NCBI GenBank assembly: GCA_021780195.1
Contig: JAJXZE010000002.1
Coordinates: 20,220 to 84,219 of the forward strand
Reading direction: 5' to 3'
Source: a bacterium
Lineage (GTDB): Bacteria > Patescibacteriota > Minisyncoccia > UBA6257 > 2-01-FULL-56-20
Length of the DNA stretch: 64,000 nucleotides
Shown here: positions 52,358 through 58,366 of the stretch, in pieces
How the letters are laid out: each line of letters opens with the position of its first letter
Numbering within the stretch: position 1 is the first letter of the stretch
Translations under genes and position numbers: made by a program
The notes under the pieces: generated by a model
What the model was told of the DNA's origin: nothing
Databases searched by the model: none
The model's input: the letters and a program-made list of their open reading frames with translations, nothing else

Positions 52358-52573
52358 ATGGCAAGAGAAGTCATAACGATCGGCGGAGACGGAGGCGTCG
52401 GCTCTGAAATGTTCGGGTTCAAAGGCAAGAGCTGCCTCAAAGCGGCGGCTGAGATTGCCGAAGAGCTCAAGCGGCTCGGAGTGGTTGCCGACATCGGCGG
52501 AATCAGCATGAAAGAGGATGCCGAGGTCGTGACCGAGACGCAGCAAGCGGCAATGAAGGTCGAAAGGGGATGA
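52358..52573 (+). CDS. small hypothetical protein (71 aa) immediately upstream of the radical SAM gene
   Basis: Ribosome-binding site GAAAGGAGGAC. Gly-rich N-terminus ITIGGDGGVGSEMFGFKGKSC. Confidence 0.45.
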   Translation: MAREVITIGGDGGVGSEMFGFKGKSCLKAAAEIAEELKRLGVVADIGGISMKEDAEVVTETQQAAMKVERG

Positions 52574-53205
52574 AAGTTATGGTTATGCCCCGCGTAAACC
52601 TTCACGACTTCGTCCCCCGGTCTCGTGCAAACGGGCCGGGGGAGCGAGCGGTGGTTTGGGTGCAGGGTTGCCCTCGGCGTTGTCCGGGGTGTTTCAATCC
52701 CGAAACCTTACCATTCGTTACCAAGAATTGGGTAACCGTTGATGATCTTGAGAGCCGAATCTTGGCTCAAAACAACATTGACGGCGTCACCTTTTCTGGT
52801 GGCGAACCGTTCGCACATGCACAGGCACTTGCCGAGTTGGCGAAAAAGCTGCGCAAGTATGGATTGACGGTGGTGTGTTACACCGGCTACACGCTCAAGC
52901 AACTTAAGGCCGGAAATCGCGAGGACTGGAATGCTCTTCTTTCAGAAGTAGACCTTCTGATTGACGGGCCATTCATCCAAGAGCAGCGGTGCCATGAACC
53001 ATATCGCGGCTCGGCAAACCAAATTCTTCACCTTCTTACCGATCGCATCCGATTGGAGGAAGTTCATGGGCAAAGCCAGACAGCAGAGTTCACACTCGGC
53101 GCTGGCGGAGACATCCAGCAAACTGGATTCCCTGAACTCCCCGACATGGATGCGGTCATGGGAGAAATCTCAGGGATCCTCAAACAGACAGGAGGATCGA
53201 AATGA
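52570..53205 (+). CDS. NrdG-like radical SAM glycyl-radical activating enzyme (4Fe-4S, CxxxCxxC)
   Basis: NGPGERAVVWVQGCPRRCPGCFNPE, GVTFSGGEPF, VVCYTGYTLKQL and LIDGPF...YRGSANQILHLL align with NrdG family hallmarks. Confidence 0.8.
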   Translation: MKVMVMPRVNLHDFVPRSRANGPGERAVVWVQGCPRRCPGCFNPETLPFVTKNWVTVDDLESRILAQNNIDGVTFSGGEPFAHAQALAELAKKLRKYGLTVVCYTGYTLKQLKAGNREDWNALLSEVDLLIDGPFIQEQRCHEPYRGSANQILHLLTDRIRLEEVHGQSQTAEFTLGAGGDIQQTGFPELPDMDAVMGEISGILKQTGGSK

Positions 53206-55010
53206 AAGATACGAAGAATTGTGCCGTAACGGCACACAGTTGGTTTGAGTCTTTTGCTCGTGCCTACGCGGCCGAGCTCGGGTACGTGTTTCTTATCTCC
53301 GGCAACATCGCAGATTTATTCCCCTTGGGGAGCGAGTTCGTGACCTTGCGCCAGTTCTGGGCAAGGCAGTTGGATGGCAGAGACATTGTGGTGTTCTGGG
53401 ATAAGTCGGCGGGGTTCGCCTTTGCTGACGAAATCCTCGGCACCAAACCGGCCGAAGGGCAACTCCCGATGAGGGAGAAGTTCAAGGCCGCAGTCGGACT
53501 GAATCAGCAGCAAGGTAATGGCGGCAGCAATGCCTCTAACTTGCTGGCTGGCTTGGCTGGATTGGGCGGCGGCAACAACGGCGCGCTTCCCACTGATCCT
53601 GAGCAAGCTTTCCAGCTTCTGGAAAAATTGCTCTCACAGGGCAAGCCAGAAGATCGGAAGGCGGCGGTAGTCGTGGAGTACATCGAAAGTGTTATCCCCG
53701 AAAACGACTACGGGTCAGTTCCGGCAGTAACGCTCCAACGGTGGGCGTCTCTGGACAGCCCGCTCAAGGGTACCGGCAACCCGGTTATCCTGATCGAGCG
53801 GAATCCAGAACGGGCCTCTAGTGTAGTGAAGCATGACGATTCGTCGGTAGTGCGGATCCACATTCCTCGTCCGAACAAAGAGGAGTTCGGAACATTCATC
53901 CGTCACAGCCTGAAGGTCAACGGCGTTAAGCTCGCCGAAGGCCTGACGGTGGACGTGGCGGCCAACCTGTCAGCCGGGCTACGTTGCAAGGACTTTGACG
54001 ACTTTGTCATGAAGTCGCTCGAGTCCGGCGACCCAATCAACGACACCTTTATTTGGCAGAAAAAGGTGGAGTTGATTGAGAAGCAGTCCGGCGGGGTCCT
54101 GCAGGTGGTAAGACCCAAGCATGGGTTCGAATCCATCGGCGGGCTGGAGCACGTCAAGAGCGCCCTACGGGTGCAGATTGACAAGCTTCGCAGTGGTTCC
54201 AGAACCACTGATAAGGGTTGGATTCTGATGGGGCCTCCGGGAACGGGGAAAACCATCATCGCCGAGGCGCTGGCGAAAGAGTCGGGTGTCAATTTCGTGA
54301 TGCTCGGCAACGTCCTCTCCAAGTATGTGGGTGACTCGGAGAGAAACATGAATCTCGCTATGGAAATTGCCCGAGCCATGGCGCCCACAATCATCTTCGT
54401 TGACGAAGCCGCTGAGGCAATCGGAAACGGAGAGGGCTACAACGGGGATAGCGGCGTCAGCAATCGTGTAAGGGGGAAACTCCAGAACGTGATGGGTGAC
54501 GACTCTGCCCGGGGCCAGCTGTTCTTTATGCTGGCAACGAACTATCCCAATCGTCTGGCACCGGCGATTCTGCGTGAGGGAAGGATGGACAAGCGGGTGC
54601 CACTCTTGGTTCCTGACAGCACCGGGAGAAATGAGATTCTCAAAGCGCTTTGCCTAAAGTATGGCATTGCGTCCGAGGGAATCGACTTTTCACCTGCCCT
54701 TGCCAGTACGGAAGGGTGGACAGGTGCTGAGCTCGAGGCGCTTTTACTCCGAGCGAAGCAATTTGCAGAGGAGGAGGAAGTGCCGGTCGAGACCCGTCAT
54801 TTCGATGAAGCGGTAAAGGATTACATCCCGAGCCGCGACCAGCAGGCGTTCGACCTGATGACCGCGTTGGCCATCAGGTACACGAACTCCAGACGGCTTC
54901 TGCCCGAGGCCTATCGGTCTGCGAATGGAGAAATTCAGAAGCGGATCGATGAGCTCGAGCCTCAGGTGGCCGAGCGCGAAGCAAGGCGCCGGGGCGGGCT
55001 GAAGCTCTAG
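53202..55010 (+). CDS. AAA+ ATPase (single classical AAA domain, ~280-aa N-terminal unknown domain), C-terminus RRRGGLKL
   Basis: Walker [15 protein letters not shown], Walker B IIFVDEA, second region of homology ATNYPNRLAPAILREGRMD. Confidence 0.85.
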   Translation: MKDTKNCAVTAHSWFESFARAYAAELGYVFLISGNIADLFPLGSEFVTLRQFWARQLDGRDIVVFWDKSAGFAFADEILGTKPAEGQLPMREKFKAAVGLNQQQGNGGSNASNLLAGLAGLGGGNNGALPTDPEQAFQLLEKLLSQGKPEDRKAAVVVEYIESVIPENDYGSVPAVTLQRWASLDSPLKGTGNPVILIERNPERASSVVKHDDSSVVRIHIPRPNKEEFGTFIRHSLKVNGVKLAEGLTVDVAANLSAGLRCKDFDDFVMKSLESGDPINDTFIWQKKVELIEKQSGGVLQVVRPKHGFESIGGLEHVKSALRVQIDKLRSGSRTTDKGWILMGPPGTGKTIIAEALAKESGVNFVMLGNVLSKYVGDSERNMNLAMEIARAMAPTIIFVDEAAEAIGNGEGYNGDSGVSNRVRGKLQNVMGDDSARGQLFFMLATNYPNRLAPAILREGRMDKRVPLLVPDSTGRNEILKALCLKYGIASEGIDFSPALASTEGWTGAELEALLLRAKQFAEEEEVPVETRHFDEAVKDYIPSRDQQAFDLMTALAIRYTNSRRLLPEAYRSANGEIQKRIDELEPQVAEREARRRGGLKL

Positions 55011-57000: not shown

Positions 57001-57055
57001 CAATTCCAAACCTGTTTGCCTCAGGCAAACGCAACTGAAATGAAAGGAGATCGAA

Positions 57056-58366
57056 ATGAAAGGGATCTATTACAGCAGACATTGCGGTTATGATAACCGC
57101 GATCAGAACAAGGACGACTGGCGTCAGCCGGTCGAAGGTGAATCCATCATTCTCAATCGATCTGCGTTCTCCAAGTTCTTCCCCGAGGTCGTAATCCAAG
57201 GGGAAATCAAGTGGAGATGCAAGGATCACAGCGATGAGCGGTGCGAGGGCTGCAACGGTTGCGACCAGAGTGTGAAAATCACTTTTGGCCGCGAAGGGGG
57301 GCAGTTCACCGTCAGTCGCACGGACGAGGGCAAGACCCACAACATCGACCAGTTCGGCTGGGGATGGAGTGGGAACGGGGCCAACGAGCACTGGTTCGAT
57401 GATGAGGCGATCTGCCTCAAGTTGGTCAGTGACTATCGATCAAACACAGGCCTTACGGCCGACTCCACAAGGATCGTCTCTTACAAGCGACACGTGGAGG
57501 TTGATTCTTTCCGCGGCGATTGCAAAGATGAAACACGAACATTGCCCAAGGGAGGTAAGATTTGGGCGGAGTTCGTCAATCATCCGGCGCAGTACCGCGC
57601 AAACTGGACGGGCTTCGGGATCGGGACATTGGATTCTGACGCTACGCCAATCATTGGCGACGCATTGGACAACCTGATCGAGACAATGCTTTCCGGCAAC
57701 ATCGGCAAGGAGACGGTGTGCAGACACAACAGTAACGTACGAGCGCACATCGTGACCGCCGATCCCAACAAGGTCTCCCTCTACCTCTGCAAATCCTGTC
57801 GGATGCGCGGAGTGCGGTGGGAAGAGTTCATGACCAGGAATCGCGCGGATACGTGTCCTTATTTCCGCCGCGCTTGCAAGAGCGTAGTGGAGAAATCGGA
57901 CTCGTTCCCCGAGTGGTTCAGCTGGAACGGCGACAATCTGCTTTCTTCTACCCTTCGGCTGAAAGACGGCGAGTACAATGCGTACGAAGTCGTCTATGTT
58001 CGAAGGAAGGAAGGATTCATTCGCCGGTCGGTGCTTCTTCTAAACGATCGCACTCGTGAAGTGTGGATGTTCCGCTACAACGGATTCATCCCGCGCACGA
58101 TGGCGGAGTTCAAAACCAAGTACGCCGAAGGTCGTCAGATTAGCGGCTACATGGGCACCGGTCCGACAGACCGCAGCTACAACAGCGAAAATCCCAATGA
58201 CAGATTCCTGTCAGAGGCGAAGATCGCGGAGGCGATTGCACAGGGTTTGAGCAACCCAGTGTGGAGAAACGGAACCTCCTTGCTCATCTCCATCGATTTG
58301 GGTCGCAACGATCTTCACGATTTCGCGATCCAGAAAGGGGAGATCAACGGCTACCAGATTGCGTAA
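57056..58366 (+). CDS. Cys-rich hypothetical protein (436 aa) with zinc-ribbon-like clusters and C-terminal ISGYMG motif
   Basis: Ribosome-binding site GAAAGGAGATCGAA. CKDHSDERCEGCNGCDQ, CKSC...CPYFRRAC, then RQISGYMG near residue 385. Confidence 0.6.
   Translation: MKGIYYSRHCGYDNRDQNKDDWRQPVEGESIILNRSAFSKFFPEVVIQGEIKWRCKDHSDERCEGCNGCDQSVKITFGREGGQFTVSRTDEGKTHNIDQFGWGWSGNGANEHWFDDEAICLKLVSDYRSNTGLTADSTRIVSYKRHVEVDSFRGDCKDETRTLPKGGKIWAEFVNHPAQYRANWTGFGIGTLDSDATPIIGDALDNLIETMLSGNIGKETVCRHNSNVRAHIVTADPNKVSLYLCKSCRMRGVRWEEFMTRNRADTCPYFRRACKSVVEKSDSFPEWFSWNGDNLLSSTLRLKDGEYNAYEVVYVRRKEGFIRRSVLLLNDRTREVWMFRYNGFIPRTMAEFKTKYAEGRQISGYMGTGPTDRSYNSENPNDRFLSEAKIAEAIAQGLSNPVWRNGTSLLISIDLGRNDLHDFAIQKGEINGYQIA

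Follow-up and report, generated by a model that had tools for sequence, protein, structure and literature searches.

What does an enzyme of the glycyl-radical-activase type do in an operon that encodes no glycyl radical enzyme (GRE)? The question is raised by contig JAJXZE010000002.1 (assembly GCA_021780195.1), from which we analyzed a stretch of 64,000 nucleotides, referred to here as the window. An earlier note on this DNA had described an orphan NrdG-like activase at positions 52570-53205 and had proposed a Cys-rich protein encoded downstream as the small glycyl-radical protein that it might activate. We find that these two genes (52570-53205 and 57056-58561) are members of one conserved same-strand operon of about 8.4 kb (window ~50.3-58.7 kb), which recurs in at least 14 related metagenomic loci. 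In the window, the operon is flanked by a structured 5' leader and a type III hammerhead, and a structured RNA of ~670 nucleotides (nt) lies inside it. The specific mechanism suggested earlier is largely refuted, and the locus is more unusual than had been thought. The reading that we favor, with a probability of roughly 0.35, is a composite one: a protein-modifying module of an AAA ATPase and a radical S-adenosylmethionine (SAM) enzyme, joined to an RNA-protein assembly.

In the related loci, a divergent gene for a TrmB-like regulator is followed by genes for proteins of ~156, ~96, and 149 amino acids (aa), for a DUF2997-like protein of ~73 aa, for the radical SAM enzyme, and for an AAA ATPase of ~600 aa. 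Downstream of these come ~800 nt without a called gene, an optional gene for a protein of ~250 aa, and the genes for proteins of ~113 and ~500 aa. The whole is a conserved accessory operon of Patescibacteria-type (ultra-small) bacteria. Four of its genes form a core that is also found outside this lineage, and they occupy the following positions in the window.

51889-52338, plus strand: 149-aa strongly conserved protein, in the position held by DUF1257 (Ycf35) in other lineages
52340-52573, plus strand: DUF2997-like protein of 77 aa (Pfam DUF2997, E value of 8e-5; 22.9 bits against a cut-off of 24.1)
52570-53205, plus strand: NrdG-like radical SAM protein of 211 aa, of the glycyl-radical-activase type
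53202-55010, plus strand: AAA+ ATPase of 602 aa, with ~300 family-specific N-terminal residues, one Cdc48/PAN-like AAA domain, and an RRRGGLKL tail (54987-55007)

Judged by its sequence, the 211-aa protein belongs to the glycyl-radical-activase lineage. It matches the Pfam families Fer4_12 (E value of 1.3e-35) and Radical_SAM (3.2e-9), and it carries the hallmark motifs NGPGER in its N-terminal part, CPRRCPGC (the CX3CX2C cluster), and SGGEP (the GGEP SAM motif), as the earlier note had recognized. The best NCBIfam model is that of NrdG, TIGR02491 (107.5 bits, E value of 5.8e-31, model positions 2-151 of 154), all other activase models scoring far below their own cut-offs, and the closest solved relative is the pyruvate formate-lyase (PFL)-activating enzyme (PFL-AE; 3c8f), aligned at PFL-AE residues 6-102. 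Since the TIGR02491 score lies under the curated cut-off of 126.1 bits, the same sequence evidence indicates that the protein is not an NrdG equivalog. The observation that no GRE gene lies nearby was borne out: there is none in the operon at any locus inspected, and no NRDD domain was found in the ten window open reading frames (ORFs) of 552-940 aa that were scanned. In one related contig (L001), a canonical NrdR-NrdD-NrdG2 set lies ~6 kb downstream of the operon (1059 bits for NrdD and 205 bits for NrdG2). This NrdD has its own NrdG2, with just 24% identity to the radical SAM enzyme of the operon; therefore, the latter is an extra paralog and not the reductase activase. Compared with known pairs of GRE and activase (NrdD-NrdG, PflB-PflA, and GrcA), the operon enzyme has the same NGPGxR, CX3CX2C, and GGEP elements and its top scores are to NrdG and PFL-AE. 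Yet it differs from them in falling below the NrdG cut-off, in having no partner with a GRE domain or fold, in having a neighbor whose G-Y motif fails the GRE signature, and in belonging to a clade that is tied to DUF1257, DUF2997, and an AAA ATPase.

The company that this clade keeps is best seen in other organisms. Proteins with 49-53% identity to the 211-aa enzyme are encoded in DUF1257/AAA/DUF2997 clusters of Sporomusa and Methanoregula. The cluster of Sporomusa sphaeroides comprises genes for WD40, Hsp70-like, DUF1257, AAA ATPase, DUF2997, and radical SAM proteins, and that of Methanoregula has the same gene set (the pair L008 4285-10582 and L011 10001-17267). In a further contig, at 54% identity, the four-gene core is present without the Cys-rich protein and without the large gap that follows the AAA gene in the window. 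The radical SAM clade is found in all three without the ~500-aa Cys-rich protein, and its family is far larger than the 43-member family of that protein. Because the enzyme is kept with the core where the Cys-rich protein is missing, its conserved partners are the protein in the DUF1257 position, DUF2997, and the AAA ATPase. We conclude that a core made of a DUF1257-position protein, a DUF2997-like protein, an activase-type radical SAM enzyme, and a Cdc48-like AAA+ ATPase is widespread in anaerobic bacteria and archaea. The Sporomusa and Methanoregula clusters, examples of a DUF1257 (Ycf35)/DUF2997/AAA gene neighborhood of cyanobacteria, Firmicutes, and methanogens, resemble the operon in grouping the DUF2997 family, the AAA ATPase, and the NrdG-like enzyme, but they add WD40 and Hsp70-like proteins, lack the RRGG tails and the ~500-aa protein described below, and give no match (in L008 or L011) to our model of a domain of the large RNA. 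The large WD40 beta-propeller proteins and the Hsp70-like protein, which has a GIDFGT motif, make this another uncharacterized variant of the module.

Identity of ~50% across lineages would suggest that the substrate of the enzyme is shared. Modules that have neither the Cys-rich protein nor the tails are served by an enzyme at this level of identity, so a core partner most likely acts as its substrate or as its electron donor. The DUF2997-like gene stands closest: its stop codon overlaps the start of the radical SAM gene by 4 nt both in the window and in Sporomusa, weak DUF2997 matches are found at the corresponding gene in L026, L027, and L029, and a G-x-x-C-L motif is common to the Patescibacteria-type loci and to the DUF2997 proteins of Sporomusa and Methanoregula. 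The 149-aa protein is 59-89% identical across seven loci. Elsewhere, DUF2997 and DUF1257 (ycf35) are clustered with the ferredoxin gene fed7 in cyanobacteria (PMC4284462), and red-algal plastids tend to lose Ycf35 and the AAA gene ycf46 together (PMC5940233).

To this core, the Patescibacteria-type lineage has added the ~670-nt RNA, the 113-aa and ~500-aa proteins, sometimes an HExxH protein, the 5' leader, and the 3' hammerhead. The additions downstream of the AAA gene are located as follows.

55165-55830, plus strand: large structured RNA of ~670 nt, in the gap after the AAA gene, ending in a long hairpin (55786-55830)
55869-56621, plus strand: HExxH protein of 250 aa, a candidate zinc peptidase with an invariant HELCHxxLAE, present only in some loci
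56659-57000, plus strand: 113-aa protein with an invariant VHRGVSQGG, a variable linker, and a QRRGGLKL tail (56977-56997); 23 homologs
57056-58561, plus strand: gene of ~501 codons for a beta-rich protein with conserved Cys and His residues, with an in-frame TAA at 58364-58366
58133-58156, plus strand: RQISGYMG motif, residues 360-367 of the Cys-rich protein

Is the Cys-rich protein a substrate of the glycyl-radical type? The 436-aa ORF in which it had been recognized is the 5' part of a gene of ~501 codons that is broken by TAA 58364-58366, which stands in place of a Gln codon. Past this codon, 64 further sense codons precede the stop at 58559-58561 (translation ...GYQIA(stop)LDHEGKECELE...RVAKQ(stop)), and the segment 58238-58555, which spans the TAA, is 92% identical by tblastn to the C-terminal end of the homolog P0001. 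The 43 database homologs are mostly 490-530 aa long, and in their alignment the window copy is short of the C-terminal ~70 residues. This codon may have arisen by a recent mutation, may vary within the population, or may stem from an assembly error. In comparison with P0001, the window copy also lacks 13 residues after residue ~193. With the truncated reading corrected, RQISGYMG lies ~135 residues from the true C-terminus rather than the ~50 given in the earlier note.

The motif itself is present and its G-Y core is conserved. In an alignment of 23 sequences, G364 never varies, and conservation reaches at least 90% at R360, Q361, Y365, and G367; the pattern Q-[ILV]-x-G-[YH]-x-[GA] is found in 30 of the 43 homologs. 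What does not hold is its likeness to the GRE signature. The strict PROSITE pattern PS00850 ([STIV]-x-R-[IVT]-[CSA]-G-Y-{GI}-[GACV]) has no occurrence in the window and none among the 43 homologs, and precisely the two features that had lent it a GRE-like look vary: the residue before the Gly, often a bulky one, is S in 9 of the 30 homologs, L in 9, and N, Q, and R in 4 each, and the Arg is replaced by Tyr in two. Since a relaxed six-residue pattern occurs once in 83,580 six-frame ORF residues of the window, the match alone is not statistically remarkable. At the level of the whole protein, no Pfam match, to Gly_radical or otherwise, is obtained at an E value of 0.1 or below, and the 23-sequence profile finds no GRE, and indeed no match, among all PDB sequences. 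An AlphaFold model (mean predicted local distance difference test score [pLDDT], 78.7) is mostly beta, and Foldseek returns no match below an E value of 0.1 in the PDB and BFVD libraries; neither a ten-stranded barrel nor a GrcA-like fold is seen. Among the observations that the earlier note had named as telling against its proposal were an unrelated fold and an unconserved motif; the fold does show no likeness to GREs, yet the G-Y core is conserved. By sequence and by model, the Cys-rich protein is not a GRE.

Of the zinc-ribbon-like Cys clusters that had been pointed out, the N-terminal one reads Cx7Cx2Cx2C rather than Cx6Cx2Cx2C and is missing in several homologs. C222, H224, C245, C248, and C267 are conserved, together with aromatic and basic residues and the G-Y core. 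This pattern of conservation suggests a zinc-type site and a binding surface, and the protein is more likely a nucleic-acid- or protein-binding subunit of a lineage-specific RNA-protein part. A phage origin was considered and set aside: no relative of the Cys-rich protein is found in IMG/VR, and phage matches to the AAA ATPase cover the AAA domain only.

The 602-aa ATPase matches Pfam AAA (E value of 3.5e-27) and the CDC48, PAN, and IetA models, and its best PDB matches are to Cdc48/p97 D2. Active-site and pore-loop motifs are intact: GPPGTGKT (Walker A), KYVG (pore loop), FVDEA (Walker B), and REGRMD. Arginine fingers are present as well. The RRGG tails to which the earlier note had drawn attention exist: RRGGLKL ends both the ATPase and the tailed small protein, which we take as 113 aa rather than 138 aa because an identical 113-aa database entry exists. 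We searched the window and all retrieved loci (2,876 ORFs with a minimum length of 60 aa) for [RKQ]RG[GNE]xxx at the C-terminus. Only three kinds of protein carry it, namely, the AAA ATPase (wherever the end of its gene is included, in 14 loci), the 113-aa protein (in all loci), and one coiled-coil protein in L004. The consensus is RRG[GN]xxL, with the variants RRGNLEL, RRGGLQL, RRGNLSL, RRGGQKL, and RRGGLPL, all of which share the first Gly and the last Leu. Among full-length AAA relatives at 30-40% identity, basic tails of the type R..RR[EA]L are also common (RGRREL, RRQRRL, and KRGKRAL), the Gly not always being present; a basic, Leu-terminated tail therefore looks ancestral. In the AlphaFold model of the 113-aa protein (pLDDT, 81), the tail is disordered and follows the variable linker.

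As short conserved C-terminal peptides placed after a flexible linker on unrelated proteins of one operon, these tails may be comparable to encapsulin cargo-loading peptides and to the HbYX tails of proteasomal ATPases. They differ from both in sequence, and no encapsulin shell or proteasome gene is present. We also considered the 113-aa protein as a ubiquitin-like modifier and rejected this, given that its model has no Foldseek match in the PDB, ubiquitin-like or otherwise, so nothing points to a fold of the ubiquitin type. In L004 (12599-14254), paralogs that lack the tail form a second set downstream of the main operon: two VHRGVSQGG proteins of ~110 aa and, at 331 aa, a copy of the Cys-rich protein that resembles an N-terminal fragment.

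The gene for the 250-aa HExxH protein, whose start we set at the Met right after GAAAGGAGG, is present in L026, L012, L029, and L002 and is missing or a remnant elsewhere (missing in L001, L006, and L028); sometimes, as in L002, it lies downstream of the Cys-rich gene. H67, E68, H71, and E76 are invariant in an alignment of five homologs, and a Pfam scan gives no match. Scans of Pfam, NCBIfam, PADLOC, and PHROGs assign no family to the 96-, 149-, 250-, 113-, and ~500-aa proteins.

In every related locus, the stretch that follows the AAA gene lacks a called gene, and this shared position is that of the large RNA. With a profile, nhmmer recovers window ~55120-55810 at full length in eight distinct loci (E values of 1e-143 to 1e-207). 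RNAalifold predicts 22 helices with a total of 146 pairs, and in 46 of these both partners show changes. In the alignment, 95.8% of the cells are paired, compared with 30-44% when the partners are slid by one to three columns, and no shuffle attains the observed values. The 3' hairpin (55786-55830) is 98% paired and covarying; it replaced a long-range helix (helix 4) of our first fold, which we now regard as an artefact of where the alignment had been cut. Many invariant G-U pairs place the RNA on the plus strand. A covariance model of a 106-nt domain gives weaker syntenic matches in L023 (E value of 2e-4), L004 (0.008), L029 (0.013), L001 (0.13), and L014 (0.43). Rfam 15 has no match to the large RNA or to the 5' leader in five loci. 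In its length of several hundred nt, its many covarying helices, and its accessory or mobile-looking context, the RNA recalls OLE, GOLLD, ROOL, and HEARO; it differs in matching none of their Rfam models and in being fixed within a protein operon, after the AAA gene.

Three further RNA elements border the operon.

50769-51054, plus strand: structured 5' leader RNA upstream of the first gene, conserved by nhmmer in L027, L028, L006, L013, and L014
58654-58684, plus strand: 13-bp hairpin from a consensus scan, terminator-like or stabilizing, just past the last gene and kept in L018, L027, and L028
58685-58735, plus strand: type III hammerhead motif (CUGAUGAG...CGAAA), with cleavage predicted after U58690

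The RNAalifold structure of the leader has 66 pairs, of which 20 show changes in both partners; paired cells make up 93.5%, compared with 36-46% after sliding. The hammerhead motif shares with RF00008 a complete core (CUGAUGA...GAAA) and three stems, of which stem III is open. The core aligns with this model at 24.1 bits (E value of 0.0084 in a 501-base search), although this does not reach the Rfam gathering score of 48.5, and cleavage is a prediction from sequence. In 420 kb searched on both strands, the motif occurs solely at this syntenic site, in the window and in L018 (~2197-2247), L027 (~11590-11640), and L028 (~11723-11773), and its stems II and III show compensatory changes. Downstream of the hammerhead, nucleotide conservation extends over positions 58740-59030 (plus strand) in L028 and over part of them in L027, with possible further hairpins.

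How should these elements be put together, and what else could explain them? Several alternatives concern the target of the radical SAM enzyme. If the ~500-aa protein were a miniature glycyl radical protein, with a radical installed on G364 by its NrdG-like neighbor, this would account for the invariant G364 in a conserved G-Y-x-G core, for an enzyme of the GRE-activase type, and for the presence of both genes together in all loci of this lineage. GREs, however, have an alpha/beta barrel, whereas this protein is modeled as mostly beta and resembles no GRE in sequence or fold; it fits the PROSITE signature in none of the 43 homologs, and the residue before the Gly, which is C, S, or A in GREs, is L, N, Q, or R in 21 of 30. 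Its Arg is one position off (and Tyr in two homologs), its motif is far from the C-terminus, the enzyme clade is found without it, and some 385-aa family sequences, of uncertain completeness, stop before the motif. All this makes the proposal very unlikely. The enzyme could also be a second activase for a class III ribonucleotide reductase encoded elsewhere, as its best family match to NrdG and the annotation of its homologs as NrdG by NCBI and the Joint Genome Institute would have it. We regard this as extremely unlikely, given the score under the equivalog cut-off, the separate NrdG2 adjacent to NrdD in L001, and a gene that is always embedded in a DUF2997/AAA operon. The third candidate is the tail, with the enzyme acting on the invariant Gly of RRG[GN]xxL by radical formation, cleavage, or modification of the tag, as the earlier note had also envisaged for the RRGG tails. 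The tails are exposed, disordered, and extremely operon-specific, their first Gly is invariant and follows an Arg, and GRE activases, among them PFL-AE, the closest solved relative, recognize the Gly within a short, extended peptide of the substrate. Against this stand the Sporomusa and Methanoregula modules, where a ~50%-identical enzyme works with no such tails on the AAA ATPase or on other proteins. The second Gly is Asn in some tails, and distant AAA relatives keep a basic tail that often has no Gly, which suggests a docking role for the tail; that the enzyme acts on it is distinctly unlikely.

The tails and the RNA also admit explanations in which the radical SAM enzyme has no part. The tails may be cleavage or engagement signals, either degrons threaded by the AAA pore or, in a ubiquitin-like manner, targets of the HExxH protein, which would cut behind GG. 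An RRGG with three residues after it presumably resembles ubiquitin-type precursors, the HExxH protein is present in several loci, the AAA pore loop is intact, and the tails follow disordered linkers. But no locus has E1, E2, or JAB genes, the 113-aa protein has no structural match in the PDB, and the tails persist in L001, L006, and L028, where the HExxH gene is missing; we consider this explanation unlikely. A serious rival, if on balance doubtful, is that the large RNA acts just in cis, as a leader that affects translation or stability for the downstream genes, and is no functional partner of the proteins. It lies on the same strand inside the operon, and in L006, L013, and L017 the 3' strand of its hairpin includes AGAGGAGG, which acts as Shine-Dalgarno sequence for the gene that follows. 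By contrast, a separate Shine-Dalgarno sequence lies downstream of the hairpin in the window, L026, and L028, and ~20 conserved helices over ~670 nt go far beyond the needs of known leaders.

We return to the composite reading, in which the enzyme serves the core and the additions form an RNA-protein part. The radical SAM enzyme would abstract a hydrogen from a core protein partner, either at a glycine or at some other exposed position of the backbone, and DUF2997, whose gene is translationally coupled to that of the enzyme, would be the first candidate substrate. The AAA ATPase, likely an unfoldase or remodeler, would engage or remodel partner proteins. The disordered RRG[GN]xxL peptide shared by the ATPase, the 113-aa protein, and the occasional coiled-coil protein would serve as a docking or engagement tag for one common receptor, which may be a protein or the large RNA. 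The Patescibacteria-specific RNA and the 113-aa and ~500-aa proteins probably form the RNA-protein part, and the hammerhead would trim the 3' end of the operon transcript. A bolder form of the idea is that of a single RNA-protein machine, in which the ~670-nt RNA scaffolds the AAA+ unfoldase and the small proteins by way of the RRGG peptide, the activase-like enzyme acting on the tag or on a small partner rather than on a classical GRE. This is a long shot; if true, activase chemistry would have a new use, and the RNA would represent a new class of large functional RNAs.

A number of observations weigh against the composite reading. In hhalign, the 149-aa protein gives only a weak local profile-profile match to DUF1257 (probability, 5.7%), and BLASTP gives none, so its place in the core is one of position. 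The pairing with a ferredoxin in oxygenic cyanobacteria fits a role of the DUF proteins as electron donors at least as well as one as substrates. The large RNA, with the Shine-Dalgarno sequence of the next gene in its hairpin in three loci, could be purely cis-regulatory. The composite reading does not account for the strongly conserved G-Y motif of the Cys-rich protein, and the assignment to an organism rests on the labels of homologous contigs from metagenome-assembled genomes, which are mostly Patescibacteria or Paceibacterota.

The remaining features lie at the upstream end of the operon or beside it.

46527-49349, minus strand: 940-aa protein with a possible GNAT domain, its C-terminal half conserved beside the TrmB-like regulator gene
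49354-50184, minus strand: TrmB-like transcriptional regulator, divergent from the operon (Pfam TrmB, E value of 2.1e-7)
50317-50345, plus strand: promoter-like site TTGACA-17-TAATAT with TG, upstream of the operon (consensus scan, 10 of 12 matches)
51085-51555, plus strand: 156-aa conserved protein, kept in related loci (phrog_23674; PHROG match, E value of 5.4e-21)
51584-51874, plus strand: 96-aa conserved protein, with tblastn matches at the same position in L006, L013, L026, and L027

The promoter-like site is a candidate only, since the regional count of such sites is not above the shuffled expectation. The TrmB-like gene adjoins the operon in L001, L006, L013, L014, L026, and L027, and residues ~483-926 of the 940-aa protein are encoded next to it in L001, L006, L013, L014, and L027 (tblastn). 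The sole Pfam match of the 940-aa protein is a weak one to Acetyltransf_1 (17.8 bits against a cut-off of 20.7), a PDB sequence search gives none, and whether the protein is part of the operon system is uncertain. The 156-aa protein, for which Pfam and PDB searches give no match, has homologs in jumbo phages of ~355-378 kb (CBB, GAP32, and Serratia BF); in CBB, the one phage inspected, the homolog (L030 7001-7474) lies next to an AAA ATPase gene in a tRNA-gene cluster.

The operon lies in a stretch of low G+C content, which is 0.51-0.56 at 50-60 kb, compared with 0.55-0.62 in the adjoining segments (44-50 and 60-64 kb). A gene for a helix-turn-helix (HTH)-Fic/DOC protein (43278-44207, minus strand) lies just upstream of the island, and HicAB, HEPN/nucleotidyltransferase, PIN, and DUF4258/DUF2283 pairs are found near the operon in related loci, as in accessory or defense islands. 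Toxin-antitoxin genes and flanks that differ between genomes suggest that the region is an accessory, mobile island. The operon is not a listed defense system, as a PADLOC scan yields just generic IetA/TRIP13 AAA matches and weak viperin matches. We found no description of the operon in the literature on DUF1257, DUF2997, Ycf35/Ycf46, NrdG-like proteins with AAA ATPases, and structured RNAs of the candidate phyla radiation (CPR), and it is not covered by Kaur et al. (2020).

Overall, the locus functions like no characterized system. To our knowledge, glycyl-radical activases act only on large GREs or on the spare-part protein GrcA; a whole clade of this type whose genes keep company with those of an AAA ATPase and two DUF proteins, in the absence of any GRE substrate, points to a radical chemistry of proteins that is unexplored in anaerobes. 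As far as we know, few large structured RNAs of unknown function exist, and each so far has revealed new biology. The locus offers about ten genes and three RNA elements as concrete components.

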